A program made the translations under genes and the position numbers. A DNA stretch of 64,000 nt from an uncultured euryarchaeote. Lineage in GTDB: Archaea; Thermoplasmatota; Poseidoniia; Poseidoniales; Poseidoniaceae. This document shows positions 2 to 21,792 of the stretch, piece by piece (the first letter of the stretch is position 1; each line of letters begins with the position of its first letter). A model generated the notes under the pieces. It was not told the DNA's origin, searched no databases, and saw only the letters and a program-made list of their open reading frames with translations. The stretch lies in assembly GCA_937915175.1 (NCBI GenBank), contig CALDNA010000057.1, positions 3,328 through 67,327 on the forward strand, read 5' to 3'.

Positions 2-3000
2 ACCCTCAACATGAACAACACCGCCACGGCAACGACCTTGCTCTGGATGACAGCAGGCGAATTTAACAGCAATAATTCCACGTTTTCGGTGATTGTTACC
101 GACCTGTTCGGCCACACAACGCCCCTCGGTTGGGTCAATGGGAGCGGGATCACTGAAAGCCCATACCACTTCGACGGTATAGGATCACAACCAATTGCAG
201 GAGATATCGATAGCGATGGCGACATTGACTTTATTGGTCAAAATCCACAAGGCTATACGATTGCCCTAAACATTGGTTTGCAATGGAACACCACCGCTGT
301 CTTGGCGACCAATGAACTCGCCACTGCGAGTGCCCTGATCAATGCCTCTGTGTTCGACCACGATGGGGACGGGGTGAATTCCCTTGTTGTGCCCAACCCG
401 AGCACAACCGATGGCAACGCACAAACCATGGAAGGCAACTTGACCGTTTATACATTGAATTCAACCCAAATTGGAAACATTTCTTCGGTGGTACAACCAT
501 GGTCCATTCCGGCCAATGCACAACCAGTGGACATGAATGGAGACGGCTTGATGGAACATGTCGTTGCAGCCGGCGAATCCACATTGGGATTGTTTATTGG
601 CGCATGGCACCAAGTTGCAATGGACGTCGATAGCGATGGACAGGACGACTTGGAAGCCTCCGGCTATGCAGGGCACGCAGCCTACGGTATGACGCCGCTT
701 TACATCCTTGATCCGATGGGGAACATTACCAACACCCTCTCTCCGTTGATGAACGCGCTCCCTTACACGGAAGACGGATTCGGAATTCGCCTCTCAAGCC
801 TCAGTTTCGCATTCTCAAACACTGGAAACGGGAGCTTCAACATTTCAGGAATGGACATCGGCTATGATGCGGACTTTATCGTAGAGAACAACCCATTCTC
901 TGCAGGGAACCTCACCAACATCATCAACCAGCAACAAACAGCAGGCACGGGTAATTTCGTGGTTGCCCTTCCAGTTCATGCAACGCTGAACGGGACGTTT
1001 GCAGTGTCTGGCTTGGTTGCCCAATACAGCCCTGGCGCACCAAACCTTTCGCTTCCCCCCACGCCAACCGTTAGCGTGACAGAACTCACTTCCGATCGGG
1101 TTCAATTGGAGTGGCAGGACATGCTTGATTTTGGTGAGGATCTGATCGAATTTGAAATCTTCAGAACCTCCGTGGGCGTGCCCTTTGATTTGACATCAGC
1201 GCACGCTGTTGAAGGCAACAACATGACTGTTGATGGCGAGGTAGTCCACGGTGAGACCTACGTCTATGGCGTTCGTTCCCTCCATGCGTACGGCGTCACG
1301 AGCGCTATGTCGACACCGCTGAGTGTAACCATTCCATACCCTGCGCCACCCGGCGCTGTGCTGGGATTGATTGCCGTTGATACGCCAGGGGATACCGGTG
1401 GTTCAATCGATGTGACTTGGAACATCTCAATCGATGGAGCGGTCGAGTACCGCGTGTACGTTGAAACACAAGCCATCGAGGCACTTGATGGATTGCAGGC
1501 CATTGCAACCCTTCCTCATTCCACCAGCAACGCCACCATGATGGTGAGTACTGCTAACCTTGGGCTCATTACGATTGACGGCGATGCCTATTATGCCGCT
1601 GTAGTGGCTTTTGACGGGTACGGTAATGCAACCGAATCCTTCGCCTCGGTTGGACCAATCTCCTCGCTCAACAATTCACTGCGAAGCGCCCTCATCGAAT
1701 ACGATCTGTCTTCAACAGGCAGCAGCGGGCAAGATGATTTCAGTCTGAGCGCTCTTGATTCACTTTACCTCAACATCACCTTGAGCGCCGACGGTACACC
1801 CCTGAGCGGCGAAAACCTCGAGTTAGAAATTGCAGCATCTGGCGCGAGCATCAAGTACGCCGGTACCACGGACGCAAACGGCATTTGGCAAGCCGTTGCG
1901 GTTGAGGACCTTGCACAACTTGGTGGCACGTTCACCACCTTCTTTGACACTGCAACGATGACCATCGAATACCTCGGCACAGCAGGAAACGCAACCATGC
2001 AACCGGTTGCAGCTGAAACCCTCATACTCGAGGGACTTGGGATCCTTCGTGCCAACATTGATGTGAATGATATGGCCCTTCAACTCGATGAAACAGGCGT
2101 GTTTGAACTTGAGCTTGATTTGGAAGCAGAACTGGCAACGCAAAACACCTACCTTGAGGGCCTCACATATACATGGGAGCAGCGCAATTCATCTGGCAAC
2201 ATCACCAGCAGCGGCGCGATTGAAGTCAAAGGTGGTCAACTCCTTCTTTCAGGAACTGCCAATCAAACGGACACCCTCACCCTCACTTCCGACCCAAGCA
2301 AGACCTGGATCTCACCTTCGATTGATCCGTTGATGTTCACTTTCACTGGTGGCCCGGACACGGGCTCCAATCAAACCACAGACGACAACGGCACGAACGA
2401 TACCAATACCACGCAAGAGCCTACATTCCCAGACGCCACCCTACCGGGCACTGTTGATTGTGGGACAGCGACCTACCCTTGGATTGACGACGGCACCGAT
2501 GCCCCCATCACGTGCACCATTACCAATCCAAATCCGTTTGATGTGATGCTTGGTTTCTCTTGGATTTTGTATCCGACCACGCCACCTCCGTTGACCTTTG
2601 AATACGTTTTGGGAGAGCCGGGAACTGAAACTATTTCAGCAACTGGAACAACACAAATTGAATTTACTCCAGTCCGAAATGGCCCCTCTGATGGATTGTT
2701 CCCGGGCCTCCAAGGTGTCGACTATGCGTTCTTTTTCACATGCAGCGAATACGGGGGCCAAAACCTGTGCGACTCCATGACCACGCCCACAGCAACCGTT
2801 GAGGGTGAATTTCAATGGACGCTTGGTGAACAACCACAGGTCGATGAGCCAATTGCAACCCCACCTGCTGACGCAAAGAGTTCCACGCCTCTCATTGTTG
2901 GCAGCGTTGTCGGCGTTCTGCTGCTTGTCGCCATCATTGGCGGCGCGATCGTTCTGCGAAGCGGCCAAGAGGAAGAAGACGATTGGTACTCGGCCGAGGA

Positions 3001-3349
3001 GGAAGACGAAGAATCAGCTCCAGCAGCCGAGAAACCGACGGAATCCCCAAGCCGAACCCTCGGTGAACTTCGGTCAGAAGGCCGGTCACTCGATGATGTT
3101 GAAGCACCGGAAGAGCGACGACCGAGCCTGTTTGATGAATTCAATTCGAACTCTGACTCAGAGATTGAATCCTACCAGCCCGTGAGTGAGTCGGTTGAAC
3201 CATCGTTCGGCGAAGAAGAGGGCACTGAAGAAGCTGAAGAAGACGGCATCAGTGTTGACGAAAACGGCACCGAATGGTGGGAAGATGAGGAAGGCGTCTG
3301 GTGGTACCGGGAAGAAGGCTGGGAAGACTGGGCGGTTTGGGAAGAATAA
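2..3349 (+). CDS. Large cell-surface protein, 5'-truncated at the window edge. Contains FG-GAP/VCBS-like Ca-binding repeats, FN3-like modules, one C-terminal TM helix and an acidic Trp-rich tail.
   Basis: The frame is open to nt 2 and the listed Met-11 N-terminus has no signal peptide. DxDxDG-type loops are present (GDIDSDGDIDF, FDHDGDGVNS, VDMNGDGLME, VDSDGQDD). FN3-like segments include LEWQD...YVYGVRS and DTPGDTGGSIDVTW...YRVYV. The hydrophobic stretch PLIVGSVVGVLLLVAIIGGAIVL is followed by an E/D-rich tail ending WWEDEEGVWWYREEGWEDWAVWEE. Confidence 0.8.
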   Translation, partial: TLNMNNTATATTLLWMTAGEFNSNNSTFSVIVTDLFGHTTPLGWVNGSGITESPYHFDGIGSQPIAGDIDSDGDIDFIGQNPQGYTIALNIGLQWNTTAVLATNELATASALINASVFDHDGDGVNSLVVPNPSTTDGNAQTMEGNLTVYTLNSTQIGNISSVVQPWSIPANAQPVDMNGDGLMEHVVAAGESTLGLFIGAWHQVAMDVDSDGQDDLEASGYAGHAAYGMTPLYILDPMGNITNTLSPLMNALPYTEDGFGIRLSSLSFAFSNTGNGSFNISGMDIGYDADFIVENNPFSAGNLTNIINQQQTAGTGNFVVALPVHATLNGTFAVSGLVAQYSPGAPNLSLPPTPTVSVTELTSDRVQLEWQDMLDFGEDLIEFEIFRTSVGVPFDLTSAHAVEGNNMTVDGEVVHGETYVYGVRSLHAYGVTSAMSTPLSVTIPYPAPPGAVLGLIAVDTPGDTGGSIDVTWNISIDGAVEYRVYVETQAIEALDGLQAIATLPHSTSNATMMVSTANLGLITIDGDAYYAAVVAFDGYGNATESFASVGPISSLNNSLRSALIEYDLSSTGSSGQDDFSLSALDSLYLNITLSADGTPLSGENLELEIAASGASIKYAGTTDANGIWQAVAVEDLAQLGGTFTTFFDTATMTIEYLGTAGNATMQPVAAETLILEGLGILRANIDVNDMALQLDETGVFELELDLEAELATQNTYLEGLTYTWEQRNSSGNITSSGAIEVKGGQLLLSGTANQTDTLTLTSDPSKTWISPSIDPLMFTFTGGPDTGSNQTTDDNGTNDTNTTQEPTFPDATLPGTVDCGTATYPWIDDGTDAPITCTITNPNPFDVMLGFSWILYPTTPPPLTFEYVLGEPGTETISATGTTQIEFTPVRNGPSDGLFPGLQGVDYAFFFTCSEYGGQNLCDSMTTPTATVEGEFQWTLGEQPQVDEPIATPPADAKSSTPLIVGSVVGVLLLVAIIGGAIVLRSGQEEEDDWYSAEEEDEESAPAAEKPTESPSRTLGELRSEGRSLDDVEAPEERRPSLFDEFNSNSDSEIESYQPVSESVEPSFGEEEGTEEAEEDGISVDENGTEWWEDEEGVWWYREEGWEDWAVWEE

Positions 3350-3405
3350 CCTTCATCGCAGGTCTTTTCATAGGGTCGTTCTCACCACAACATGGAGGGC
3401 ATTTG

Positions 3406-4167
3406 ATGGAACATGAATTGAAGGGCTATGCACTTGTCTTGCAAGAAGGTGCAGATCCACGAACCGGTGGTGTTGCTATTGCAGGCTTTACCACGGCTGG
3501 TATGGTTGGCGTTATTGCAGCCGCGCACATCATCAAGACGCTGAAAATGCGTCAACTTGGCACGGTTTTGAATGCAGAGTTTCCAGCGGTTGCCCTGATT
3601 CACAACGAGATTCCAAAGCACCCTGTCCGGGTCTATCAGGGCGATGGCATTGGTGTATTCACCTCCGAAATACAATTCAAGAACGAGCAGGACATCATGT
3701 TCGCTTCGACCGTTTTGGAATGGTTCACCAAAGGCGGATTTGATCGTCTCATCATCATCGACGGTCTTGTTGGCTCCGGCGACGTCCAAGCGGGCCAGTT
3801 GTTTGGCGTTGGTTCATCAGAGGCGGCACGAGTGCGGTTGCGAAATTCAGGTATTGAGCCAATTCAGCAAGGCATTGTTGCAGGCATCACTGGATTCCTC
3901 TTGGGTGAAGGCGACCGACTTGGGATTGACGTGACGGCCTTGTTGGCTGAAGCAAGCCCGCTTTACCCCGATGCAAGGGCGGCAGCACTCGCCGTTGAAG
4001 CCGTCGGGGAACTGACTGGTTTGGAAATTCCACTCACTGAATTGCTTGAAAACGCTCAAACCATCGAGTCAAGCGTCCAAGAGGTCATAGAAAATTCACG
4101 GACCATGTTGCCAGGGCCTCACATCGATATCCCTGATGATCCTTCACTCGACCCTTCAGTTGGTTGA
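3406..4167 (+). CDS. PAC2-family (proteasome assembly chaperone-like) protein
   Basis: GVAIAGFTTAGMVGVIAAAHIIKTLKMRQLGTVLNAEFPAVALI...VRVY matches the PAC2/COG2047 N-terminal pattern (GxPGxGxVG...L...fP). I chose the ATG at 3406 (MEHELKG) because the upstream part of the ORF overlaps the previous gene and is Gly/Arg-rich. Confidence 0.65.
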   Translation: MEHELKGYALVLQEGADPRTGGVAIAGFTTAGMVGVIAAAHIIKTLKMRQLGTVLNAEFPAVALIHNEIPKHPVRVYQGDGIGVFTSEIQFKNEQDIMFASTVLEWFTKGGFDRLIIIDGLVGSGDVQAGQLFGVGSSEAARVRLRNSGIEPIQQGIVAGITGFLLGEGDRLGIDVTALLAEASPLYPDARAAALAVEAVGELTGLEIPLTELLENAQTIESSVQEVIENSRTMLPGPHIDIPDDPSLDPSVG

Positions 4168-5520
4168 ACCGCTGGTGGTTTGAACAACCTTCACAACCGT
4201 TTCAAACGGCGCGTCGGTCACAAGCATCGGTTCCAGATCAGGATAGCGTGCAGCAGCATGGCCTGATTCAATCAGTGCCGCAATTAATTTCTCAATTTTC
4301 GGAGCACCGCCAACGCCGCACAAACGAGGCAACGCATCGAGGCTCAACAGCAGGTGGTCGCGACTCATGAGGTCGGAAGCCTCTGCAATGTAGCGAACCC
4401 CTCTGCGGACTTCTCTTGAAGAATATTCAATGTCTTCATCGTTCCAAATCAAGCCAAACTCACGTCCCCGATTGATGTCATCTGGCTTTGGGTGACACAG
4501 TTCAAGCGCTCTTTCTTCAGTCATCCGTCCTGCGACCTCCTTGTGCCACATCGGACCAATCCACATCGGGCCGCTTGCGTTCGGTAATTGTTCAGGCGCA
4601 GGGTGCTGGACAAACCGGTAGGGTATGTCCTCGCATCGAACCCGCCAGCCGATTGATTTTCGAATGGCGGTTGCTTCAGATTTGCTTGTTCGGACAAGCA
4701 GGGAAATTCGCACATGATGGCCGTCAAATAAGGCCAGGAGAGGTGTGACCACCTTATCAAGACGGGCAGCGGTTGTGGCCACAGTGCCCAGCAGCAAACG
4801 AACCGCATCATCATGAGCGTATTCATCAACCAGTCCTTTGGCTTGGTAGCGCCTTGCTTGGCTGGAAGGTGAAGAACCCGTTAAGGCGGCGGTATCTGTT
4901 GCGGTCACTTCGAGCACACCGGTACGCGACAGGCTCTGCAATGCAGCATCAAGAAATTGAATTGGGGAACCAAATGGATCCAAATCGACCCATTGGTAGG
5001 CCGCATCCACCATCGCCATCCTCGCATCGAGGCGCTGGAAATGCACCCCATTGTCAAACACGGCCGTTGAGGTTTGGCCGTGGCGGTCGCCTTCAGGTTC
5101 GTGTTCAACCGGTGTGTGAGGTGGGTGTTTAGCGTGAGACATCTTCGCCCAAGACAGTGCGAATTCATCCAAATCATTCGCAGTAATTCGCAATCGATGC
5201 TGAAGTTCGCCGGGGATTTCGTTGCGCCATCGCCGGATACGTACCCCGGTTGCGCACAAAGCGTCGAGGGCCCGAATCGGTCGCTGCTCCTTGACCAGCC
5301 ATTCATGTTCGAGGGCGTCCGTTAGGAGCATCACGCTGCGGGTTCGAGCTGGAGCCATTGCCGGATTGAGAAAGCCGGGGCCTGTGCGCTTTGCCGGGCC
5401 TCTTGGCATGTGCGTGGGCCGTTCTTGTTCTTCCATGAGGTGGATTAATGTGCGACCTTCAAGCCACATTTGACCTGGCCAGCCAGCAGGATGTTTGCCC
5501 TGTTGTACCTCCTCGCCCAT
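4156..5520 (-). CDS. trm1: tRNA (guanine26-N2)-dimethyltransferase Trm1
   Basis: Trm1 hallmarks are FLNPAMAPARTRSV, LDALCATGVRIRRW and VDLDPFGSPIQFLDAALQSLSRTGVLEVTATDTAAL. The ATG at 5520 is preferred over the GTG at 5535. The 3' end overlaps the convergent PAC2 gene by 12 nt. Confidence 0.88.
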   Translation of the reverse strand: MGEEVQQGKHPAGWPGQMWLEGRTLIHLMEEQERPTHMPRGPAKRTGPGFLNPAMAPARTRSVMLLTDALEHEWLVKEQRPIRALDALCATGVRIRRWRNEIPGELQHRLRITANDLDEFALSWAKMSHAKHPPHTPVEHEPEGDRHGQTSTAVFDNGVHFQRLDARMAMVDAAYQWVDLDPFGSPIQFLDAALQSLSRTGVLEVTATDTAALTGSSPSSQARRYQAKGLVDEYAHDDAVRLLLGTVATTAARLDKVVTPLLALFDGHHVRISLLVRTSKSEATAIRKSIGWRVRCEDIPYRFVQHPAPEQLPNASGPMWIGPMWHKEVAGRMTEERALELCHPKPDDINRGREFGLIWNDEDIEYSSREVRRGVRYIAEASDLMSRDHLLLSLDALPRLCGVGGAPKIEKLIAALIESGHAAARYPDLEPMLVTDAPFETVVKVVQTTSGSTN

Positions 5521-5612
5521 GCTCCTCGGTGACACTGCTCATTGAAGACCGCACCGATGGACAAAGGTATGGCCATCACAATTCGGTTGAAGATGTGACA
5601 CTTGGTGTGAAA

Positions 5613-8435
5613 ATGCACACTAAGGCTTATACCGCATCCGATGTCCTAACGTTAGTTATGTCCTTATTGAAATCCAATAAAGCGATGCTTGCAGCCGGCT
5701 TAATGTTCCTCCTTCTAAACCTCGCAGTTTTGGCGCCACTATCGACTGGTGGAGTCCAAGATGCAGTCGACGAAACATTTGCGACCTACACAAAAGATAC
5801 AGCATGTGCCAACGATGATTGCACGGAAGCAGAGGCCGAATGGGCAGTTTCTACTTCTCAGCGAGACTATTCCGCTTGGTCAATAACAAATCTTGACGAA
5901 ATGATGGCCAACGGTACAGAACCGGCGTATAAAGAAATTGGGCCATTCACTTATGATATTACCAAAACGAACACTATTACTGGCTATGATAAAACAAATG
6001 GCACCCTCACATACACCCAAATCAAGTCACATCAATGCGCTGTAGATAGCGCAAACCCATGTGACACTCCTGTAACTCAAATAAATATTGGATTCCAACC
6101 ACAGGTGATCGGTGCAACAGGAATGGCAATTAATGGAATTATGGAACTCACCAAAGTCGCATTCTCAGCCGGTATGCTGGGTGCTGATTTGGAAAGCATG
6201 CAAGCAGGTTCAGCAACAGCCACAACCATCTCAGCACAAATCGCAGGTGCATCGGCTCAAATGCAAGCCGCAGGCCTCGATGAAGAAACTGCAGACGCAA
6301 TGGCTCCAGCGGCCGTAGCCAATGGATGGTTTGATGCCTTTGATGCTTTTTTCGCAGCAACGAATGCTTCTCAAATGAACAACATGACGGGTAATGGTGA
6401 AACAATCAGTTATTCACAAGCCATGGGCGGACAAACAGCAGGTTTCACAGATGTTTCAACGGCTATGGATTCAGCAATGATGCCAACAGGTGAATCTGCG
6501 GCATTGACTGGAGGACTTGGTGTTCTGCTCCTTGCAGGACATTGCTCCTCCTTTGCTACTGCTGACTATGCAGAAATCATGGCAGATGCTGCCAATGGAT
6601 TCGCTAATGTCGGTACAATGCAACGTGCAGCCATTTGGAATTACACGGCAATGGCCGATGCAACAACTCCAGACTTTAACACCACAATCGCTCGAGACCA
6701 TGCAGTTTGCTTCGGAGTCGCTGGAGATTTCTCTATGAACAATGGTGGCGGCGATGCAACATGGTTTGCAACACCTGAAACCTCCGTAAATGCATCATCT
6801 CGGTTTGCAAATCTCGGTATTACGATTGACAACATGGTTGCCATGAATTTACTCTTTGCAGGACAAGGCACAGATACCCCAACAGGTCTTCTTGCTAGCA
6901 ATGCAGAACAAACTGCATTCGGACTTGCATCGTTCATGCAAATGGATGCAGCTTCAGCAATGACCGCATTCAATCTTGATGCGACTCAATATGGAGCTAT
7001 TGCAATGTGGGCTGGTGCTTGGCTAACCGATGTTAGCACCTTCCCTATGGTTCTGAGAGGCGGAACGGGCGACATGACAGCATCACTCTTCGTCAATACT
7101 ACCTTTGGTGCAGCAGACCCGATCAATGGCGGATACCTAACCAACAGCCTGAATTTGGGCGGTGCATGGGGAGTTGTCGGTGCATCTTTTGGCGCTCCAG
7201 CAGTCGAGTTGACCGCTGCACAATCAGGTAACCTCCTCTATGGTCCACTTGGACTCACAACTTCAGCAGGGGCAACAATATTCCTCTTCGGTGAATTATC
7301 AGGACAAACACCTCCAGTCGATTTCACCACAATGCAACCCGGACCACAAATGGAATGGAATGCTTCAACGATTGCTACACTCTACGGAATCGATGTAAAT
7401 GCAGCAAGCGCAGTTCGCGCTTTGATGATGGGTCCAATATATGGCGAAACAGCAGAATCGTTCGTACCAGGATTTTTGATGAGTTCATTCGGAACGACTC
7501 AGTACTTGGAGCAACCTGTGAGTGCGTGGTTATTCGGATGGCACGATCCTGTTAGCGCTTTCCTTGCTTCAGGAAACCCAATGGACATGACCGTTGGATG
7601 GGCTTCTCTCGATACCAATGAAACATACTACGGTTCTGACGGCGTTCTCAATGGTAATGGAACATCATACACCATTTGCACTGGAGAAGTTGCAGGATGT
7701 GACAAAGGAGAATCTGTATTGGAAGATGGTTCCAATGAATTGCCATGGCATAACACCAGAATGGCTACAGCAACCTTTGGATTGATTGGAGTTGAATACC
7801 TCGATGGCGCAACCGGCGGATTCCTTACAGGAACTGACGACAAGGTCGATGTATCAGGCTATGCAGTCGTTCCGGTTACCTGTGACGCAACAGGAACCGT
7901 TGAAAATATTCCAGTGGATATCTGTACTGCATCCGTTGAAGCAACATCACGTTCCATTCAAGCAAAGAACTTGGAGACCTTCACTTTGCTCGATGCAACA
8001 CCAAGCGCTCTACCAATTTTCTTGGGCAGTGATATTACATTGAAGAGTGAGAAACTATCTGGTTTGATTATTGCTGGCGAATCCACAACAACATTCTACT
8101 TGGATACCCGTCAAAACACAAACATGACAACAGCTCCACAAATGTCTGATTTGATTAAGGTGTTCACAATCAATTCATCATCGATGATAGAGGCTGGAGA
8201 TGCTGATACTATGGAAAGTTCAATTGTGACCAATCAAGAAACGTTCGGATACTGGACAAACTTCGATCACCCAGTTGATTACATCACGATCATGTTCTAC
8301 ATCTTGGCCATTGGCGCTCTTGCAAACGGCGTCCGCCTCATGGGTTCCGAAGATGAAACAGATGAATCAATGAAGGCTGAAGCTGCTCCTGCAGAAGAAG
8401 CACCTTCCGAAGAGGCTTCTGAAGCAGCAGAGTGA
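5613..8435 (+). CDS. Two-TM membrane protein with CD36/LIMP-2/SR-B-family-like motifs, a large Ala/Gly/Met-rich insertion and an acidic C-terminal tail
   Basis: N-terminal TM AMLAAGLMFLLLNLAVLAPL and C-terminal TM YITIMFYILAIGALANGVRLM. Ordered motifs YSAWSITNLDEMMANGTEPAYKEIGPFTY (5868-5954), WLFGWHDP (7527-7550), ALPIFLGSD and TTFYLDTRQNT resemble the CD36 family as I recall it. The ATG at 5613 was chosen because upstream ORF codons overlap the trm1 5' end. Confidence 0.55.
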   Translation: MHTKAYTASDVLTLVMSLLKSNKAMLAAGLMFLLLNLAVLAPLSTGGVQDAVDETFATYTKDTACANDDCTEAEAEWAVSTSQRDYSAWSITNLDEMMANGTEPAYKEIGPFTYDITKTNTITGYDKTNGTLTYTQIKSHQCAVDSANPCDTPVTQINIGFQPQVIGATGMAINGIMELTKVAFSAGMLGADLESMQAGSATATTISAQIAGASAQMQAAGLDEETADAMAPAAVANGWFDAFDAFFAATNASQMNNMTGNGETISYSQAMGGQTAGFTDVSTAMDSAMMPTGESAALTGGLGVLLLAGHCSSFATADYAEIMADAANGFANVGTMQRAAIWNYTAMADATTPDFNTTIARDHAVCFGVAGDFSMNNGGGDATWFATPETSVNASSRFANLGITIDNMVAMNLLFAGQGTDTPTGLLASNAEQTAFGLASFMQMDAASAMTAFNLDATQYGAIAMWAGAWLTDVSTFPMVLRGGTGDMTASLFVNTTFGAADPINGGYLTNSLNLGGAWGVVGASFGAPAVELTAAQSGNLLYGPLGLTTSAGATIFLFGELSGQTPPVDFTTMQPGPQMEWNASTIATLYGIDVNAASAVRALMMGPIYGETAESFVPGFLMSSFGTTQYLEQPVSAWLFGWHDPVSAFLASGNPMDMTVGWASLDTNETYYGSDGVLNGNGTSYTICTGEVAGCDKGESVLEDGSNELPWHNTRMATATFGLIGVEYLDGATGGFLTGTDDKVDVSGYAVVPVTCDATGTVENIPVDICTASVEATSRSIQAKNLETFTLLDATPSALPIFLGSDITLKSEKLSGLIIAGESTTTFYLDTRQNTNMTTAPQMSDLIKVFTINSSSMIEAGDADTMESSIVTNQETFGYWTNFDHPVDYITIMFYILAIGALANGVRLMGSEDETDESMKAEAAPAEEAPSEEASEAAE

Positions 8436-8496: not shown

Positions 8497-9621
8497 TCAG
8501 TAATGGGTGAATTCCACGCCTTCGATGGCGTGGGTCACCTTGTGCCCGTGATCCTCAACGGTGCCAATGATGGCAACACCCGTGAGGCGCTGACTCAGCC
8601 AGTCGCAAATGGTCTGTGCGTGCGTCGCATCCACGGCGATAATCATGCCACAGCCCATGTTGAAGGTGCGGTACATCTCTCTCGTTTCGATGCCTCCCGC
8701 ACTTTGGAGCCAATCGAACTCAGGGTGAGCCGGTAGTGGCGCATCAATGTGCCAGCCGAGGCTGTCATGCAGGCGCAAGAGGTTTGACAACCCACCACCA
8801 GTGACGTGGCATATGCCGTGAAGGTCTCGAATTGCAAAGGGAACCTCTTCAGTTGCACAGGCGTGCAACATATCCACAACGGGGTCGCAGTAAATCTTAG
8901 TTGGATTGAGAAACACTTCCCCTAGGGTGAAAGGCATCCCGTCTCGCCCGTCAAACCGCAAAACAGACCGGCCAATGCTGGCAACTGAAAACGGCGTTTC
9001 ATCCGTATAGGAAGCGCCAGCATGTTCCATCACCTTTCGAACCAAGGAATATCCATTTGAATGAACACCAGAAGACGGCAGACCGATCAAAATATCACCC
9101 GCTTTGAGGTTCTCTCCGGTGATGGTGTCGCCTTTCTTGACGTAGCCAAGAGCGGTGCCGGAAAGGTCCAGTTCGGTCACAATGCCTGGGAGTGAAGCGG
9201 TTTCTCCACCGGCCAAGGTTACACGGGCGAGCCGACAGGCTTCAGCCAAAGAAGCGCCAAGTGCTGCATGCGTGGCAGGATCTGGTTTTGGTACAGCAAC
9301 ATAGTCGACAAAAGCGATTGGCTCTGCGCCAACGCAAAGCAAGTCATTGACGTTCATTGCCATGCAATCAATACCAACGCCACCCCACTGGTTGAGGGCG
9401 GATGCAATCTGCAATTTACTGCCAACACCGTCGGTTGCCAGAGCGAGCAACGAGTCGCCAAATTCGATCAGTCCACCGAAGCCCCCCGGCAAATCGACGG
9501 GTGCTCCGGGCGTGCCTGGTTGGCGCGTCGACCTGCCGAGTGAAGCGATGAGGGACGCTACAGCAGAGCCTTCGAGGTCGATGTCGACGCCAGCGCTTGC
9601 GTAATCCATAGGTTCGGCCAT
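8497..9621 (-). CDS. purM: Phosphoribosylformylglycinamidine cyclo-ligase (AIR synthetase)
   Basis: YASAGVDIDLEG...GGFGGL...LATDGVGSKL...GIDCMAMNVNDLLCVGAEP.FVDY...GGETA is colinear with PurM. The ATG at 9621 (MAEPMDYASAGVD) is preferred; the ORF extends to 9654. Confidence 0.9.
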   Translation of the reverse strand: MAEPMDYASAGVDIDLEGSAVASLIASLGRSTRQPGTPGAPVDLPGGFGGLIEFGDSLLALATDGVGSKLQIASALNQWGGVGIDCMAMNVNDLLCVGAEPIAFVDYVAVPKPDPATHAALGASLAEACRLARVTLAGGETASLPGIVTELDLSGTALGYVKKGDTITGENLKAGDILIGLPSSGVHSNGYSLVRKVMEHAGASYTDETPFSVASIGRSVLRFDGRDGMPFTLGEVFLNPTKIYCDPVVDMLHACATEEVPFAIRDLHGICHVTGGGLSNLLRLHDSLGWHIDAPLPAHPEFDWLQSAGGIETREMYRTFNMGCGMIIAVDATHAQTICDWLSQRLTGVAIIGTVEDHGHKVTHAIEGVEFTHY

Positions 9622-9675
9622 GCCCTTGCCACAGAAAGGCGTTTGAAGAACCAACCGGCTGAATCTGCCGCTCGT

Positions 9676-10698
9676 TCACTTCAGAGCATTGGCTAAGAAC
9701 GGCAGACTGAGGTCAAGTCTGTGGTCAATACCCGAGTGGGTGCCTGAGAATTCTTCCCAACGATGCTCGATGCCGAGTTCCTTCATTCGATCGACCAAAG
9801 CGCGTGAACCATACTGGATGTTGTATTGGTCACGATCACCACAATCAATCCAGAACCCAGATAAGCGGGTTAATCCTTCGGATTTAGCTTCAATCATGTT
9901 CAGTGGATCAAACGTCAGCCATCGCTGCCACGCCTCAATATCGACGGTAGCAGTGCGTGGTTCAACCGGCAATTCAATTCCAATCGGATTGTCTGCCGTT
10001 GGGTTTCGTGGATCGTACGAGCCAGCCATAGCGCAAATCATCAGCGTGTGGAAGTCAGGCCCCGACATTTTGTGAGCCTTTCGAACGTGGTCGACGTATG
10101 CAGCGGCTGAACCGTAGGAAGCAACGTGGGTGAGGGTCTCTGCAAAGGTCGGTTTGAACATCGTTTCAAAACCAACATCTCCTGAATGACAAGCGATTGC
10201 ATCCCACGCCCCGGGGTTGATCATGGCGTTGACAAGAGCCCCATAACCACCGGATGATTTTCCAACCAATCCAAACCGCTGATTGGTAGCGTAGCGTTCG
10301 CTGATGGCGGGTTTCAATGCCTCTTCAAGCCAAGTGGCCCACTGGCCCATGATTGGCGAATCCACGAACTGGTTGCCTCCCAAACTGGTGAACGTGTCTG
10401 GCATCACGAAGATGGAAGGTGACATTTCTCCCGTTGCCACCAACCGTTCATGCCGCTGAGGAAGGGTTTCTGTAAACGCCTTCCACCCTGCTCTTGCTGG
10501 GCCGGAGGATGTGAATGGTGCGAGGTAAATGATGACGGGCAATTGCTCGCCTGCAGCCATTGCTGTCACGCCCTCTGGCGGAATGTGCACGAGGATTTCA
10601 CGTTCCGTCGGGTCACCAAGACGGTTGGCCAAAAGAGTTGAATCCACACACCATCGCTCAAGCAAACCACGGGTGGGGGCAAATGCATGGTCGGGCAT
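9676..10698 (-). CDS. Alpha/beta-hydrolase, putative esterase family (esterase D / enterochelin-esterase-like)
   Basis: Nucleophile elbow GLVGKSSGGYGAL (GxSxG) with downstream ACHSGD and HSGIDH motifs typical of this fold. ATG at 10698; an alternative GTG lies at 10722. Confidence 0.6.
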   Translation of the reverse strand: MPDHAFAPTRGLLERWCVDSTLLANRLGDPTEREILVHIPPEGVTAMAAGEQLPVIIYLAPFTSSGPARAGWKAFTETLPQRHERLVATGEMSPSIFVMPDTFTSLGGNQFVDSPIMGQWATWLEEALKPAISERYATNQRFGLVGKSSGGYGALVNAMINPGAWDAIACHSGDVGFETMFKPTFAETLTHVASYGSAAAYVDHVRKAHKMSGPDFHTLMICAMAGSYDPRNPTADNPIGIELPVEPRTATVDIEAWQRWLTFDPLNMIEAKSEGLTRLSGFWIDCGDRDQYNIQYGSRALVDRMKELGIEHRWEEFSGTHSGIDHRLDLSLPFLANALK

Positions 10699-10892
10699 GG
10701 TTCTTCCTTGAGGTGATTGCACATGGATGATGCGGTGATGGCGTTCGGTCAGTGGACACTCGGAGTTCCCCTAAACAGGCCACCTCGGCTTTGCCTTTTT
10801 CCAATGGAAACCAAGGGGTCTTGATTCGCCAAAGATACGCTCATAAACGGTTGGCTCTACAGAATGAAAGTTGAGCGAGTAAAGAACCTCCG

Positions 10893-13070: not shown

Positions 13071-15101
13071 ATGGCCGAGCCTCGCACCACCGAGCCTGTA
13101 GGCCAAGTCGATGACGCAGCCTCCCTTTCACCAGACGAACTTGGTTTCATGTGCGGGATTGAAGTTCACCAGCAATTGGCAACAGGAAAGTTGCATTCGC
13201 GTCAACCCGGCGTTCTCTATGACATCACCATCGACACGGTACCTGAGGATTGGAAACGGTTTGAGCGAAAACTGCGAGCCGCCCGCGGAGAAGGTGGAGC
13301 CATCGACGTTGCTGCTCGCTTTGAATCACGGCGCAACCGCTCGTTTGTCTACGTGCAAAGCCCCAATGCCGGCTTGATTGAACTCGACGACCAGCCTCCA
13401 TTGGATCACGATGAAGACGCAATTCAAATCGCACTCACCGTTTCTGCGTTGCTCGATGCAAAACCCGTATCCCTCCTTCAAACCATGAGGAAAACAGTCG
13501 TCGACGGGTCCAACACAAGCGGCTTTCAGCGAACCTCACTTGTTGCCACCGATGGAACCCTTCACACTGAAGATGGCCCGGTTGGTATTGATGTGCTGTG
13601 CCTCGAAGAAGACAGCGCTCGGAAGTTAGACACCTTGACGACATCCAATGGCGAGCAAGTCATCTACAACCTCGATCGACTGGGGCTTCCATTGATTGAA
13701 ATCGCAACGGCACCCGATGTTCTTACGCCTGAGCACGCCCAAATCACTTCGATGGCCCTCGGCCGTGTGTTGCGCCAAACACGCAAGGTTCGGCGCGGGC
13801 TTGGAAGCATCCGCCAAGATTTGAACGTCTCTCTTGCCTGCGGGGACCGCGTCGAAATCAAAGGGTGCCAAGACCTCAATTGGATCCCGCGCATCATCCG
13901 CCTTGAAATGGCTCGCCAACTTCATTTCTATCGTTTAGCGAATGAATTGAGGAGCATGCTTGAGTTACCACTTCTCCCTCCCGACCGAAGAAGCGACGAT
14001 GAGCAAATGGAATCCGAAGTTGCTGTGGCGGTTGAAACATACCTGCCGCTCCATCTGGTTGACGTGTCGACTTCCTTTGCTTCTTGCGAATCTAAGATGG
14101 TCGTTGGTGGCCTCGCCAAAGGGCACGCTATGCTCGGTTTGCCACTGCCAGGACTGAGCGGCAAAATTGGAACTAAAACCCTCGATAAAGAAGGCTCACA
14201 GATGCCTAGGCTTGGTCGAGAATTGGCCGGCGCTGCAAAACTTGCGGGCGTCAAGGGCGTGTTTCATTCCGATGAATTGCCCGCCTACGGGATTGAACAA
14301 ACCCACATTGACGAAGTTCGCCAAAGCCTTTCGCTCACCGATCAAGACGGATTCATCTTGTGCCTCGCTCCAATGTGGCAAGCGGAATTGGCGCTTGAAA
14401 GTGTGCTCCAGAGGGCGAGGAAATCATGGCACCGAACGGCACAAGAAGTTCGCAACGTCGTGGTCAAGAAAGGCGCTCCTGAAGACGGCACAACCGCTCC
14501 AATGCGCCCTCTGCCAGGTGGTGCCCGTATGTATCCGGAAACCGATATCCCTTCCATCATCATCAACGAGGAACGCTGGACGACAACATTGGCCAACCTA
14601 CCGATGAGCGATGAAGACCGCTCGAACCGCATAAGCGAATACGACATTTCAGCAGACCAAGCAAAGCAACTGGTTGCTCGCGAACTCGATGACGTGTACG
14701 TCGACCATGTAGCCCAACTTCCCCACAAAGGGTGGGCGAGCGTTGTCTTAGAGAACGATGAAGCAGACCCCGAACTTTGTGCAAAAGTGTTGATGGTAAA
14801 GGAAGAGGGCGACATCACCCGTGAATCGATGAACGAAATCATTGCTGCTTTTGTTGGACAAAAACCCTCCAAGGAAGAAATTGCATCCTATGGGGAAGCA
14901 AACGGCCACAAACCAGCGGACGTCGGCGATCTCGCAGCTACCATTCAGTCGATTGTCCAAGAACGAGCAGACTTCGTCAAGGAACGCGGCATGGGTGCAA
15001 TGGGCCCGCTGATGGGTGTTGTGATGCAAACCGTTGGGGCTGCGGATGGAAAAGTGGTCAGCGCCTTGTTGCGTGAAGCCATTCAAAACACCATGGGGTG
15101 A
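13071..15101 (+). CDS. gatE: Glutamyl-tRNA(Gln) amidotransferase subunit E
   Basis: GIEVHQQLATGKL, the GatB/E core (NLDRLGLPLIEIATAPD, RQDLNVS...RVEIKG) and a C-terminal GatB/YqeY-like MGPLMGVVM. ATG at 13071 (the ORF begins at a TTG at 13044). No gatD is adjacent. Confidence 0.88.
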   Translation: MAEPRTTEPVGQVDDAASLSPDELGFMCGIEVHQQLATGKLHSRQPGVLYDITIDTVPEDWKRFERKLRAARGEGGAIDVAARFESRRNRSFVYVQSPNAGLIELDDQPPLDHDEDAIQIALTVSALLDAKPVSLLQTMRKTVVDGSNTSGFQRTSLVATDGTLHTEDGPVGIDVLCLEEDSARKLDTLTTSNGEQVIYNLDRLGLPLIEIATAPDVLTPEHAQITSMALGRVLRQTRKVRRGLGSIRQDLNVSLACGDRVEIKGCQDLNWIPRIIRLEMARQLHFYRLANELRSMLELPLLPPDRRSDDEQMESEVAVAVETYLPLHLVDVSTSFASCESKMVVGGLAKGHAMLGLPLPGLSGKIGTKTLDKEGSQMPRLGRELAGAAKLAGVKGVFHSDELPAYGIEQTHIDEVRQSLSLTDQDGFILCLAPMWQAELALESVLQRARKSWHRTAQEVRNVVVKKGAPEDGTTAPMRPLPGGARMYPETDIPSIIINEERWTTTLANLPMSDEDRSNRISEYDISADQAKQLVARELDDVYVDHVAQLPHKGWASVVLENDEADPELCAKVLMVKEEGDITRESMNEIIAAFVGQKPSKEEIASYGEANGHKPADVGDLAATIQSIVQERADFVKERGMGAMGPLMGVVMQTVGAADGKVVSALLREAIQNTMG

Positions 15102-15106
15102 GCCGC

Positions 15107-16816
15107 ATGGACCGCCGTCCGTTGCTTGCATTTGCCTTGTTAGTGCTGTTGTTCCCAACCTTTGGGGCGGCCGCCGAACAACCTTCCTTCGACGAGGAGT
15201 TTTCACTCGAATGGAGCCATGACTTTGGCGACGTGTACATCACGACCGCTCCCTTGTTTGTCGAGAACCAACTCTATGTTCGCACTTCAGCTTCATGGGG
15301 CGGGACCGACGTTCCATCGGTGACGGCGTTTGACCTCGATGGCCAACTGGTTTGGTCGCACGCCAACCCAAATTCCTCCCATCACGACATGGCACCCTTG
15401 CTTCACATCGAACAAGGGGCAGGTGCCTGTGGAACATGGCCCAGCATGCTCGTTGTCGCCTGGTCGGATGGCCGCGTTGAGGCGAGATCACCTGAAAACG
15501 GGGAACTGTTTTGGTCGCACCAATCAAAAGCCATCACGTGGGGAATCACCGGGTCAATGGCGCTTGATGGCGACTTGGTTGTGGTCCCAACAAGAACGGG
15601 AGTCGTTGCCTTATGTGCTTCAGATGGCGAAGTAACGATGGAAGCAACCACTGGATTAGGGTGGCGAAACGGCGTTACGGTCACATCAGATGGCTATTAC
15701 CTTGGAGATGAAACTGGAACGCTGTGGGCCGTTGAACGCAACGGAACGGTCCGTTCCGAATTCCTTGAAACGGGTAAAATCCGACACGCTCCTTTGATCA
15801 CGACCGCAGGTTTGTTTGTTCAGGTGCAAAAGTCCGCCTCGAGCACAGCGCACCTCATTCAAACTTCCACACTCACCTCAACCAGCAGCCTCGATTTGGG
15901 CGCTTCACCAGCGATGCCAATCCATGCAGGCGATTACGTGCTCTCGGCAGACTCTGGTGCGGTGCACCTCATCGAATGCCGGGCGACATGCATCGAAATC
16001 AACAGTTCTTCATTCCTTTCCAATGGAGAGATTGGACGGGTGCACCACGGGCAATTCATGCTACCATACAACGGGCCGGATCTTGGCTGGGGAATCGTCA
16101 ATGTTTCGTCGGAGGGAAAATTGCAACTTGAAACCGTGACGACGGGCGCCGATGGTTATGCCACCTCAGGGCCAGCATTTGTGAGCATCGGAGATGCAAT
16201 CCATTTGGCCTTCGGAAGCGATGAAGGTATCGTTTATTTCTACACTCTAATGCAAGATGATTCTTCTCAACCTGAACAAATAACCGACACGAACTTCGAT
16301 TGGGCAGCCCAAGGCATGGTGTTCTTGCTCTACCTTTCAATTGGCGGTGCCGCCATTCAAATGTTGAGGAACAAGGGTGCTTCGGTGCTGAAGTTTGCTA
16401 GTTTGTATGTGCTCCTCATCGCCCTTTTGGTGTTGGATCAAGTGGCGGTCCAATGGTCCCAATTCATCGAAGAAGTCGACCCTTCTCCAGAACAGGAGGT
16501 TTGGGATTCATCCTGGGAGGAGTCATGGCGCGACACTCAAATTGTTTCAATTGTCATCGATGGAGAAATGCATGCCGTCGGCGGGCTTGAAGGATACAGC
16601 AATGCGCTCGAACTCACCATCGCGGCGTGTGAAGAACTTGGCTTGGAACTTCAAACCGAACGAACAGAAATGGGCACCTATGTGGTGGCCTTCAATGGCG
16701 TCACAGGTGAAGGATGGGAATACACCATCGATGGCCGCTTGGCACCTGTGGCGGCAGATTATTCCAACATTGATTCCACCTCAAGAGTCCAATGGTATAC
16801 GGTTGATACGAGGTAA
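15107..16816 (+). CDS. Secreted PQQ-like beta-propeller protein fused through two TM helices to a DUF4430 (transcobalamin-like) C-terminal domain
   Basis: Signal peptide MDRRPLLAFALLVLLFPTFGAAAE. BamB/PQQ-like repeats (LVWSH, ELFWSHQS...GDLVVVPTRTGVVALCASDGEV). TMs MVFLLYLSIGGAAIQML and LYVLLIALLVLDQVAV. The C-terminus IVIDGE...ALELT...GTYVVAFNGV..GEGWEYTIDG...VQWY fits the DUF4430 pattern. A GTG at 15098 overlaps the gatE stop (GTGA); the ATG at 15107 is preceded by GGGGTGA. Confidence 0.6.
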   Translation: MDRRPLLAFALLVLLFPTFGAAAEQPSFDEEFSLEWSHDFGDVYITTAPLFVENQLYVRTSASWGGTDVPSVTAFDLDGQLVWSHANPNSSHHDMAPLLHIEQGAGACGTWPSMLVVAWSDGRVEARSPENGELFWSHQSKAITWGITGSMALDGDLVVVPTRTGVVALCASDGEVTMEATTGLGWRNGVTVTSDGYYLGDETGTLWAVERNGTVRSEFLETGKIRHAPLITTAGLFVQVQKSASSTAHLIQTSTLTSTSSLDLGASPAMPIHAGDYVLSADSGAVHLIECRATCIEINSSSFLSNGEIGRVHHGQFMLPYNGPDLGWGIVNVSSEGKLQLETVTTGADGYATSGPAFVSIGDAIHLAFGSDEGIVYFYTLMQDDSSQPEQITDTNFDWAAQGMVFLLYLSIGGAAIQMLRNKGASVLKFASLYVLLIALLVLDQVAVQWSQFIEEVDPSPEQEVWDSSWEESWRDTQIVSIVIDGEMHAVGGLEGYSNALELTIAACEELGLELQTERTEMGTYVVAFNGVTGEGWEYTIDGRLAPVAADYSNIDSTSRVQWYTVDTR

Positions 16817-19404: not shown

Positions 19405-21792
19405 ATGGTCGAGGGTGCCTATGCTGTGTGTCACGTCTGTGGTCAACGAAAAGAGGAATCCCCCTGTTTGCTTTGTTCCTCGATGATTCGGGGTGGTCCA
19501 AAGACTGACTGGGATTATGAAATTGATCAAACGCTTCACAATGAAATCGCAGCCAAACTTGGAGGCCCACACCCAAACACAAGGCGGCGATGGAACTCCC
19601 TTGAGGACGCCTTCACAGACTCAAAAGAAGTTGATTGGGCCCGATTAGATGAACAGGTCGATCCGGTTCTGGAGCAACCAGCAACGAAGGACGAGTTGGA
19701 ACGGATCACGGGAGAAATTGAACAGGGCGTCAAACTTTCTTCCGAGGACCGCTTGGTCCTCCACCAAGGATTTCTCATGCGCGATGGATTGCACTTCTCC
19801 TTTCAAGACGAACAATTGAGCATGAACGGTCGGCAACTTCCTCGAAAGGTGCCTGTAGTTTCCCTCTTGCGTGTGCTCAGTTCACCAAAACTCCGGATGG
19901 GCTGGGATTTGAGTAAATTGATGGTCGTCTTCGGATGTACAAATTCATCAGGGGAGGGCGTCAATCGACAAGGTGGAGAAATCCCTCGCGGAAGGATACA
20001 TTACATGGAGCATCGAAGGGAAATGCGCCGGAACAATCAACCAAACCGTCGAGCGGTGTTCGCGACACTCACTTGGATCGGATGGATGGCAGAAGAACAC
20101 ATTCCTCCACCGCCCAACCACACGCTCCATCCGCTGGCCGCTTGGGCCAGAGACATCCAACAACGGCTCAACACCCGAAGTGGATTTGATGGAAATGTCG
20201 CCGAGGCGTTCTTGAATCATCCTCAAGGGCTTGAAGAACTGAATCATTATCCTTGGCTACAACGTTGGAGTGAATTCCGGGGGACGACTCAAAGCCATGC
20301 TCCAGTGAAGTGGCCCCTGCGCATCGTTGGGAATAAGTTCAAACTACGGGTTCGCTCCAAAACAGGCGCTTCAATCTACACCAATGTTCCCGAGAAACCT
20401 GCCGCATGGGCCCTCCTTCTTTCTTTGAGCCTCTCGCCAATTACATCGCATGCAGGAGAAACCATGTTTGCCATTCAGCACAATTGGACTTCGATTGCAG
20501 CTTCACCGGCCCTCGTGCCTGCCCCGCTAAAACGCTCGATAAAATTCCTCAGCGAAATCATTGAAGGAAACTCCGAACGTGTCTTTGTTCAAGACAAGCA
20601 CTTGCTTGTTGTTGGCCGCTTGGGCCATTTCTACGAAGTTGCAGTCGGCAAAGGCGTCCACATGGCCCCATTTGTCATCCGTAGTGTTGACGGCCTCTCA
20701 CCGCGGCGAACGAACCCTATCTGTATTCATCACGGGACGTTTCACAGTTCAGTTCCATTGGGAGATACGATGGCTTCAGTTGTTCTTACACTTCTCGATG
20801 ACGTTGGCGCAAGCCAGCAAATTGGATCGCTCCTAACGAACCTTGCTTGCCAATCACCGCTCGGTTTTCCAAGCACATTGGACGCGCCTCACTTGGCCAT
20901 GCTTCACGAAGCGACATTGAATCAGCTGGTCGCCGCCATCGAAGCACGTGGCACTCGGGGCGGCCCGTTTTGGCTTGCTGAACAACCAGGCCAAAACCGA
21001 GGAAGAAATAATCAACGGCCGCGGCATAACGATGATCTTCACTTCAACTACTTGATGCGGAGAAACCGTCACAGGCAAGGCCGAGGCGCTGGAAGTTCAC
21101 CATCTGGCCAGGTCCAGAACCTCGTCGCTCATGCCGCTGCGGCTAAACGGCCAGTGCCAATCACAGCCTTGGCCAACATGTGGCGAGAATCTCTAATCAG
21201 TCACACCGAAGAGCAAGATGAGGCACAGGAAGGCGCTGGAGAACGATTTAACCACTACATCAACGATTTCCAGAGGGACGATTGGATGTTCATTCGAAAT
21301 CATGGTGAAGCCGAAGCGGACGCACCAATTGGAGATATTCGTAATGGCGAGCGCCGGTACTGCGAAGTGTTCCCGCGTATCTGGGAAGCGATGCTGTTGC
21401 AACCAATTGGCTCCTCTCTGACCTTGAGCGTCGCCGATGGTGGTGATTTGATTTTCGAGCATTGTATGCTCAATGTGACTCTACGAAACGGAGCCGAACG
21501 TCGGCTCACTCGACGGTTCGCAGACCTAGCAGGTTATGTCGAACAAGGCCAAGATGGTGGACGCATGACGTTTCTTCGACGCGATCACCCCCGTCAGTGG
21601 GCTCGCCGAAATCTAAGCGAGAGCCTTAATCGGGCGCAGGAACGGTTTGGATTCCGAGGCGCCCCACCTTGGTGGTGGCACTATATGGAGGCAAACCAAG
21701 CACCTGACCATTTACCAGAATTCCGATGGGAACTGAGCGTCGATTTGCGAGATAACAATGCCCAGAGAATGGGCGGTGACTTCCGACCTTGA
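19405..21792 (+). CDS. Hypothetical 795-aa protein: N-terminal CxxC-x10-CxxC zinc ribbon, Arg/Trp-rich, no recognisable catalytic motif
   Basis: AVCHVCGQRKEESPCLLCSS (19429-19476). The long ORF has protein-like composition. A conserved-looking block is HLLVVGRLGHFYEVAVGKG...NPICIHHG...VPLGDTMASVVLTLLDD (20596-20844). No P-loop or other known motif is seen. Confidence 0.7.
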   Translation: MVEGAYAVCHVCGQRKEESPCLLCSSMIRGGPKTDWDYEIDQTLHNEIAAKLGGPHPNTRRRWNSLEDAFTDSKEVDWARLDEQVDPVLEQPATKDELERITGEIEQGVKLSSEDRLVLHQGFLMRDGLHFSFQDEQLSMNGRQLPRKVPVVSLLRVLSSPKLRMGWDLSKLMVVFGCTNSSGEGVNRQGGEIPRGRIHYMEHRREMRRNNQPNRRAVFATLTWIGWMAEEHIPPPPNHTLHPLAAWARDIQQRLNTRSGFDGNVAEAFLNHPQGLEELNHYPWLQRWSEFRGTTQSHAPVKWPLRIVGNKFKLRVRSKTGASIYTNVPEKPAAWALLLSLSLSPITSHAGETMFAIQHNWTSIAASPALVPAPLKRSIKFLSEIIEGNSERVFVQDKHLLVVGRLGHFYEVAVGKGVHMAPFVIRSVDGLSPRRTNPICIHHGTFHSSVPLGDTMASVVLTLLDDVGASQQIGSLLTNLACQSPLGFPSTLDAPHLAMLHEATLNQLVAAIEARGTRGGPFWLAEQPGQNRGRNNQRPRHNDDLHFNYLMRRNRHRQGRGAGSSPSGQVQNLVAHAAAAKRPVPITALANMWRESLISHTEEQDEAQEGAGERFNHYINDFQRDDWMFIRNHGEAEADAPIGDIRNGERRYCEVFPRIWEAMLLQPIGSSLTLSVADGGDLIFEHCMLNVTLRNGAERRLTRRFADLAGYVEQGQDGGRMTFLRRDHPRQWARRNLSESLNRAQERFGFRGAPPWWWHYMEANQAPDHLPEFRWELSVDLRDNNAQRMGGDFRP

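Follow-up and report, generated by a model that had tools for sequence, protein, structure and literature searches.

A CD36-family membrane protein with its own helical apex in the marine archaeal order Poseidoniales

Does an uncultivated marine archaeon encode a member of the CD36 family, a family that is regarded as having arisen in eukaryotes and is traced back to their last common ancestor? The question is raised by a gene on contig CALDNA010000057.1 of an uncultured euryarchaeote of the Poseidoniaceae (NCBI GenBank assembly GCA_937915175.1), of which we analysed a stretch of 64,000 nucleotides (positions 3,328 to 67,327 of the forward strand), referred to below as the window. An open reading frame at 5448-8435 (+) of the window contains an in-frame ATG at 5613 that yields a protein of 940 residues, and a sequence-only reading had proposed that this protein is a CD36/LIMP-2-like scavenger receptor in an archaeal context, with one transmembrane helix at each end and an ectodomain split by a long insertion. 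We find that the gene very probably encodes a true homolog, by descent and by architecture, of the eukaryotic CD36 / scavenger receptor class B (SR-B) family, which includes CD36, LIMP-2/SCARB2 and SR-BI. Residue numbers throughout count from ATG 5613.

Searched with the Pfam profile of the family, PF01130, the whole protein scores 45.9 bits against a curated cut-off of 26.5 (E 3.8e-12), and the best stretch pairs residues 88-170 with profile positions 56-134. The N-terminal 220 residues, for which the sequence-only reading had suggested this very check, score 40.6 bits on their own. The C-terminal 340 residues and the middle 380 residues of the window protein, searched alone, gave no Pfam match, and a search of NCBIfam gave no match either. 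All ten divergent orthologs tested, which are 28-41% identical to the window protein, also pass the PF01130 cut-off (29.3-70.5 bits), and in several of them the match begins at profile position 2 and includes the first transmembrane helix. Furthermore, the C-terminal ~310 residues alone match PF01130 positions ~148-247 in four of five orthologs tested, with scores of 35.6 bits (E 5e-9) for ortholog P0124 and 27.7 bits for P0128. Since the N-terminal match runs as far as profile position ~134 and the C-terminal one takes over at ~148, the protein is colinear with the family on either side of the gap.

A family profile was built from 18 orthologs with the middle excised (window residues 16-166 joined to 612-915). 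Against the PDB, this profile matched LIMP-2 (E 1.8e-9) and CD36 (E 2.8e-8) and nothing else below E 0.04, with one ADP-ribosyltransferase at E 0.04-0.4, and the LIMP-2 match is a single continuous stretch that crosses the junction. When the excised-middle alignment was compared by hhalign with human LIMP-2 (a sequence identical to PDB 4Q4F over residues 28-432), the probability was 96.8% and the E-value 2.8e-10 over 330 aligned columns, with family-profile columns 54-409 pairing with LIMP-2 residues 45-431, which make up nearly all of its ectodomain. Homology was found over the whole ectodomain; for the last ~150 residues the support comes only from hhalign, from Foldseek and from a weak HMMER match in colinear position. 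Single-sequence phmmer against the PDB found nothing significant; at the level of sequence, the relationship to family members in the PDB is visible to profiles only.

The sequence-only reading had also paired five motifs with human CD36. All five are present where it placed them, and three of the pairings are supported by the alignments: the N-terminal motif, WLFGWHDPVSAF with LLWGYKDEILSL (WLFGWHDP with LLWGYKDE), and VFTINSSSMIEAGDA with VFPVMYLNESVHIDKETA (the VFTINSSS...DA motif). The other two, ALPIFLGSD with PHF and TTFYLDTR with FVDINP, are probably off by about one strand, because hhalign pairs PIQAKL with PIIMSF(PHF) and LSGLIIAGESTTTFYLDT with LTGIILKAAKRFQINIYV. The overall colinearity is left intact by these shifts.

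Family members are recognised by a hairpin topology, with one transmembrane helix per end and a large ectodomain between them (PMC10715195), and this is what we find. Hydropathy gives only two hydrophobic segments, at residues ~22-48 and ~891-911, and the AlphaFold model has its terminal helices at residues 22-55 and 889-911, in agreement with the proposed helix at each end. The protein is best explained as a membrane protein folded into a hairpin, whose two ends lie in the cytoplasm. The features of the gene are as follows.

5626-5632, forward strand: TATA-like box CTTATAC, read directly from the sequence, 26-32 nt upstream of the likely start ATG 5658.
5658-8435, forward strand: coding sequence of the CD36-family protein from its likely start, placed by homolog starts and upstream stops; 5613 and 5448 are in-frame ATGs further 5'.
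5676-5756, forward strand: N-terminal transmembrane helix, residues ~22-48 (hydropathy; AlphaFold helix 22-55; covered by the ortholog PF01130 matches that begin at profile position 2).
5790-6107, forward strand: predicted N-terminal part of the beta-barrel core, residues ~60-165, with the YSAWSITN...GPFTY motif and the LNI strand (PF01130 and LIMP-2 alignments).
6108-7445, forward strand: apex expansion, residues ~166-611, conserved, non-repetitive and predicted to be all-helical, opening with a ~59-residue helix (161-219).
7446-8276, forward strand: predicted C-terminal part of the core, residues ~612-888, with the α5-equivalent helix, the WLFGWHDP motif and then barrel strands.
8277-8345, forward strand: C-terminal transmembrane helix, residues ~889-911 (hydropathy; AlphaFold helix).
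8346-8432, forward strand: short acidic tail, residues 912-940, of low model confidence (predicted local distance difference test score, pLDDT, below 50) and of variable length among orthologs; presumably cytoplasmic.

The AlphaFold model was computed from 35 sequences, including 12 divergent orthologs, and reached a pLDDT of 80 and a predicted template modelling score (pTM) of 0.70; a first run with 24 close homologs gave a pLDDT of 60, with the C-terminal core below 50, and was left out of the fold search. Long beta strands lie at residues 79-157, the N-terminal core strands (pLDDT ~86-90), and at 684-858, and the whole stretch from 161 to 626 is modelled as helix, for the most part with a pLDDT of 85-95. 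In a Foldseek search of the PDB, ectodomains of LIMP-2 or CD36 make up all of the 13 best matches of the model (E 9e-7 to 4e-4, probability 1.00, ~300 columns). The model contains an asymmetric antiparallel beta barrel with a helical membrane-distal apex, and the match is good, not tight; as modelled, the ectodomain is best explained as the asymmetric beta barrel of the family. Both a PF01130 or profile match and a CD36 fold, whose joint absence the sequence-only reading had named as grounds for abandoning the idea, were thus found. The next Foldseek matches were to Mycobacterium smegmatis LmcA (PDB 7N3V, 7SHW; E ~2e-2) and are weak and partial, and mycobacterial LppX and LprG appeared only at E >2, which is not significant. 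The similarity to LmcA, such as it is in the model, hints at a wider likeness of the CD36 barrel to bacterial cavity-containing lipoproteins.

Several observations weigh against membership of the family or against a function drawn from it. The match to LIMP-2 has a target-normalised template modelling score of only ~0.41, and in the structural alignment only 10-14% of the residues are identical to LIMP-2 and CD36. A search of 1.84 billion representative proteins with the family profile reached no eukaryotic CD36 at E<=1e-3; the relationship is therefore distant, and the search is silent on the closest eukaryotic relatives. Ten cysteines, in five near-neighbour pairs, are invariant in Marine Group IIa (MGIIa), and their pattern differs from that of metazoan CD36; they do not align with the LIMP-2 cysteines in hhalign, and several are missing in the Marine Group IIb (MGIIb) orthologs. 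The positions of the ectodomain disulfides are treated as a metazoan conservation and not as a family-wide one (PMC10715195). Finally, the neighbourhood lends no functional support, the window gene being monocistronic between Trm1 and purM and the synteny differing between clades. The low identity, the empty phmmer search and the lack of a Pfam match for the C-terminal 340 residues of the window protein might suggest that the resemblance arose by chance or convergence and that the protein belongs to an unrelated archaeal family. We regard this as extremely improbable and effectively refuted, since five independent lines agree and are colinear over the whole ectodomain, namely the Pfam match, the separate C-terminal Pfam matches, the profile search against the PDB, hhalign and Foldseek, and the two-helix hairpin topology also agrees with them.

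The insertion that splits the protein had been described as apical, rich in Ala, Gly, Met and Thr, and probably helical. This description held up: the gap in PF01130 between positions ~134 and ~148, the location in the α4/α5 region of LIMP-2, the composition of residues 166-635 (17.9% Ala, 11.9% Gly, 10.6% Thr and 6.2% Met) and the model all agree with it. In the profile and hhalign alignments, about 445-450 residues stand where LIMP-2 has ~27 residues between α4 and α5. The LNI strand, the counterpart of LIMP-2 "TLNIP", closes the N-terminal core, and the first apex helix starts at the location of LIMP-2 α4. On the far side, the last apex helix SFVPGFLMSSFG aligns with LIMP-2 α5 HFLREIIEAMLKAY, and "YLxQPVxxWLFGWHDP" aligns with LIMP-2 "FVTHTVDELLWGYKDE". 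Many Gly, Trp, Cys and Phe columns of the insert are invariant, even between MGIIa and MGIIb, and neither self-BLAST nor hhalign of its two halves found internal repeats; it is therefore not low-complexity filler. In the AlphaFold model, the ~59-residue opening helix is followed by a 26-residue helix (224-249), and the two would fit a stalk that holds a globular helical head. Searches of Pfam and the PDB and with Foldseek found no relative of the apex, which may be a new fold of ~450 residues. Because no relative outside Poseidoniales was detectable in the PDB, with Foldseek or in the profile search of 1.84 billion representatives, the Poseidoniales apex appears to be an independent expansion.

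The three-helix-bundle apex of the family (α4, α5 and α7) was not found, and a ~450-residue helical domain lies between the α4 and α5 equivalents. This is not disqualifying, since a like departure at the identical site is seen in many bona fide protist SR-Bs (PMC10715195). Eukaryotic SR-Bs have repeatedly gained lineage-specific helical expansions at the α4/α5 position (Boohar et al. 2023, PMC10715195), and the ectodomains of non-metazoan SR-Bs span 413-2,294 residues (PMC10715195). The archaeal ectodomain, at ~840 residues, follows this protist expansion rule with a domain of its own.

How widely is the gene distributed, and where did it come from? With clustering at 90% identity, a word-indexed search returned 479 clusters, of which 120 were listed; almost all of these have 840-970 residues, and apart from a single 745-residue fragment on a short contig all of the 120 carry PF01130. 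A scan of one genome per GTDB species gave at least 171 relatives, and the 80 listed are all from Poseidoniales barring a few evidently mis-binned contigs. Contigs with the archaeal gene occur in metagenome-assembled genomes (MAGs) named Rhodobiaceae, Salipiger bermudensis and Yoonia sp. (L024, L033 and L035), most likely through mis-binning. The profile search of the 1.84 billion representatives gave 278 proteins at E<=1e-3; among the 150 of these that were listed, the full-length ones (>800 residues) are 843-969 residues long and all match the profile across the apex, and no apex-less short form and no eukaryotic protein was present. The most divergent full-length members, at 28-32% identity, are from Thalassarchaeaceae (MGIIb), and for one MGIIb member the NCBI name is "CD36 family protein [Candidatus Thalassarchaeum sp.]".

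Homologs labelled Candidatus Poseidoniaceae, Poseidoniales or Poseidonia lie on contigs of up to 1.1 Mb beside TFIIB and other archaeal genes, and one (L004) lies on the original MG-II chromosome CM001443.1. In the window, the neighbours are a PAC2 proteasome-assembly chaperone, the tRNA m2,2G methyltransferase Trm1, PurM, an MCM helicase and GatE. The archaeal context proposed by the sequence-only reading is borne out by these neighbours and by the long Poseidoniales contigs, which also rule out contamination with eukaryotic DNA. Measured against two full-length orthologs, the ratio of nonsynonymous to synonymous polymorphism (pN/pS) is 0.24-0.28 overall, 0.12-0.15 in the barrel halves and 0.26-0.37 in the apex; the gene is under purifying selection, with faster evolution in the apex. 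Conservation is highest in the barrel core, where many positions are invariant from MGIIa to MGIIb.

The occurrence of the gene in both families, MGIIa and MGIIb, argues for its presence in their common ancestor, and the gene was probably already present in the ancestor of Poseidoniales. Because the CD36 family is broad in eukaryotes and restricted to one order in archaea, a single ancient horizontal transfer from a eukaryote would be the most economical reading of its origin. The broadest combination, an order-wide archaeal CD36/SR-B clade that either arose by a very old transfer from a eukaryote into the Poseidoniales stem or represents a prokaryotic lineage with a bearing on the source of the family before the last eukaryotic common ancestor, and that provides a lipid capture and import route with a unique apex, is possible but on the whole doubtful.

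What could such a protein do in these archaea? In the characterised members of the family, hydrophobic ligands are bound at the apex or beneath it and reach the membrane through the barrel tunnel (Neculai 2013 and others, summarised in PMC10715195). The apex serves these members as the ligand-recognition site, and it is the place where lineage-specific expansions are concentrated (PMC10715195). Lipids and peptides are the inferred substrates of Poseidoniales, which are photoheterotrophs (10.1101/2020.09.16.299958), and genes for beta-oxidation are widespread and highly transcribed in both of their families (Damashek et al., 10.1101/2020.09.16.299958). By analogy with the characterised members, we tentatively propose lipid uptake as the function, although we place this a little short of an even chance. 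The enlarged apex would capture a hydrophobic ligand from seawater or particles, likely candidates being long-chain fatty acids or other phytoplankton-derived lipids, and the putative internal tunnel of the barrel would conduct this ligand to the outer face of the cytoplasmic membrane, from where it could feed the beta-oxidation pathway of Poseidoniales. Homology, architecture, a lipid-uptake mechanism and an ancient eukaryotic origin together form the best explanation of the locus, and we lean slightly towards it.

The gene neighbourhood does not discriminate among functional readings, and three other uses of the fold have to be weighed against lipid uptake. The apex makes up half of the protein, its pN/pS (0.26-0.37) exceeds that of the core (0.12-0.15), and its ~59-residue opening helix could project it from the membrane, all of which would suit a CD36-fold surface receptor or adhesin whose apex binds particles, phytoplankton surfaces, polymers or the envelope of another cell for attachment or sensing, in place of lipid movement through a tunnel; in animal CD36-family proteins, the apex is likewise the fast-evolving part and binds many non-lipid ligands (PMC10715195). 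However, the barrel core is the most conserved part, which argues for a function in the barrel and not in the apex alone, Pfam detected no adhesion-type domains, and the acidic tail has no recognisable signalling module, so that we consider a receptor or adhesin unlikely.

The tunnel of CD36-family proteins is in principle bidirectional, and SR-BI mediates efflux as well as uptake. The protein might carry membrane-anchored lipids, lipoglycans or lipid-linked glycans outward, toward the S-layer or the surface, a role proposed for cavity-containing carriers such as mycobacterial LmcA. LmcA is the next structural match after LIMP-2 and CD36 (E ~2e-2), and one synteny class has a glycosyltransferase-like gene and a 293-residue membrane protein directly downstream on the same strand, but these neighbours are absent from the window arrangement, the LmcA-type matches are weak and partial, and no envelope-biogenesis genes are consistently linked. 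We judge outward transport to be decidedly improbable. A special case of lipid uptake would be the supply of carotenoids or retinoids to proteorhodopsin, as insect NinaD and Santa-Maria and mammalian SR-BI take up carotenoids for visual chromophore supply. No rhodopsin or carotenoid gene is linked to the gene in any locus examined. Poseidoniales are proteorhodopsin photoheterotrophs in which proteorhodopsin is among the most transcribed genes, but a crtD transcript was reported as well, which suggests an endogenous carotenoid metabolism (10.1101/2020.09.16.299958), and we give this special case very little credence. Uptake of lipids more generally is the function we retain, tentatively, for the protein.

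The start of the gene had been placed at 5613. This ATG is in frame, but translation probably begins 45 nt further on, most likely at ATG 5658 (MSLLKSNK...), which gives a gene of 5658-8435 with 925 codons plus the stop. We place it there because most homologs begin at the MSLLKS position, because in-frame stops lie just 5' of it in three close orthologs (L004, L010 and L041), because the TATA-like box stands upstream, and because ATG 5658 leaves a 122-bp divergent intergenic region toward the Trm1 gene, with which the upstream starts overlap. A box of sequence ACTATAC is found at an equal distance from the start in L010 and L041, and the CTTATAC box would fit a leaderless or short-leader archaeal transcript. 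A scan for sigma-70 promoters and terminators came out below shuffled expectation, the sigma-70 model being unsuited to archaea. The public gene call of a 99%-identical protein (P0001, 968 residues) starts upstream, within 5448-5657, in the part of the open reading frame that overlaps the divergent Trm1, and is probably over-extended.

Three of the five closest orthologs examined have broken reading frames. L010 has an in-frame TGA (6700-6705) with conserved sequence continuing in the same frame beyond it, and +1 frameshifts occur in L008 near 6715 and in L006 near 8575. These breaks are probably MAG assembly errors, with pseudogenes or recoding as the alternatives.

Across the 82 loci that we compared, several clade-specific arrangements were found and no neighbour is conserved in all. 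The window arrangement, with Trm1 and purM on the opposite strand and an esterase gene two genes away, is common to ~18-19 loci. The esterase gene of the window (PF00756, 'putative esterase') lies at 9676-10722 (-), two genes downstream, and could be lipid-related or coincidental. A second synteny class has, in 20 loci, a conserved membrane protein of ~290 residues (293 in the example L034:8785-9666), of unassigned function, directly downstream on the same strand. Near it are glycosyltransferase-like and metallophosphoesterase-like genes and, at position +3 in 10 loci, a 705-residue FadB-like gene (3-hydroxyacyl-CoA dehydrogenase/enoyl-CoA hydratase); these three labels were read from the sequences and not from Pfam. 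Neither the PF00756 esterase at +2 nor the FadB-like gene at +3 is associated tightly enough to count as evidence. In the locus of homolog P0099 (L001/L002), the neighbours resemble calcium-binding surface proteins: upstream is a 964-residue protein (2974-5868) with faint TIG/TSP_3 matches, and downstream an EF-hand protein (8690-9949) whose start overlaps the end of the CD36-like gene.

Elsewhere in the window, an open reading frame of 2,793 residues at 44674-53055 (-) has no Pfam match at E<=1e-5, and the same is true of those at 11-3349 (1,112 residues) and 19405-21792 (795 residues). Two adjacent large genes at 24174-32893 (+) resemble an AddA/AddB-type helicase-nuclease pair, one product (1,244 residues) carrying a C-terminal PD-(D/E)XK domain and the other (1,673 residues) a UvrD helicase and a PD-(D/E)XK domain. 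The window also encodes a PQQ_2/BamB-like beta-propeller protein (15098-16816, +), a 659-residue protein with C-terminal EF-hands (37937-39916, +) and a malic enzyme fused to a phosphotransacetylase domain (53247-55649, +).

The bare identification of these proteins is already in databases, since automated pipelines attach PF01130 to them and NCBI names some members "CD36 family protein". In the literature that could be searched, no paper links CD36 with Poseidoniales, Marine Group II or archaea, and the most recent survey of the family, by Boohar et al. 2023, was confined to 165 eukaryotic proteomes and says nothing of archaea or prokaryotes (PMC10715195). What we describe is a genuine CD36-family member with a unique apex, from a domain of life that does not figure in discussions of the family. 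An order-wide archaeal clade changes the known range of the family. It provides an uncluttered example in which to ask if receptors of this type can pass from one domain of life to another and, being free of glycosylation and trafficking, a simple system in which to study how the barrel tunnel works. Marine Group II archaea are very abundant, have yet to be cultivated and are inferred to feed on proteins and lipids; the study of their transcription names no lipid uptake system (10.1101/2020.09.16.299958), for which the CD36-like protein is a concrete, testable candidate. If lipid uptake is correct, the protein would provide a so far unidentified route of lipid capture and import in the most abundant planktonic heterotrophic archaea of the ocean.

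Among known systems, LmcA (PDB 7N3V, 7SHW) offers an analogy only, a weak and partial similarity of the beta-sheet core at E ~2e-2; LmcA, LppX and LprG differ in being small lipoproteins and not hairpin membrane proteins, have no sequence relationship to the archaeal protein and score far lower. Human LIMP-2/SCARB2 (PDB 4Q4B, 4F7B, 5UPH) and CD36 (PDB 5LGD), the best structural matches of the archaeal model, share with it the hairpin of two transmembrane helices, the large ectodomain, colinearity over LIMP-2 residues 45-431 and the motifs F/Y-x-x-x-TN...GP-x-TY, LNI, (L/W)L(W/F)G(Y/W)xD and VF(P)...(N)(E/S)S..ID.E.A. In contrast, the archaeal protein has a helical domain of ~450 residues in place of the ~27 between α4 and α5, an identity to them of 10-14% and another cysteine pattern, and its host has no endolysosomal system or lipoproteins. 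The protist SR-Bs (Dictyostelium LmpA, Phytophthora, Tetrahymena; PMC10715195) differ in that the Poseidoniales apex has no detectable relative outside its order, but like the archaeal protein, whose ~840-residue ectodomain falls within the reported range of 413-2,294 residues, they retain the barrel core and carry a helical expansion at the α4/α5 hot-spot.

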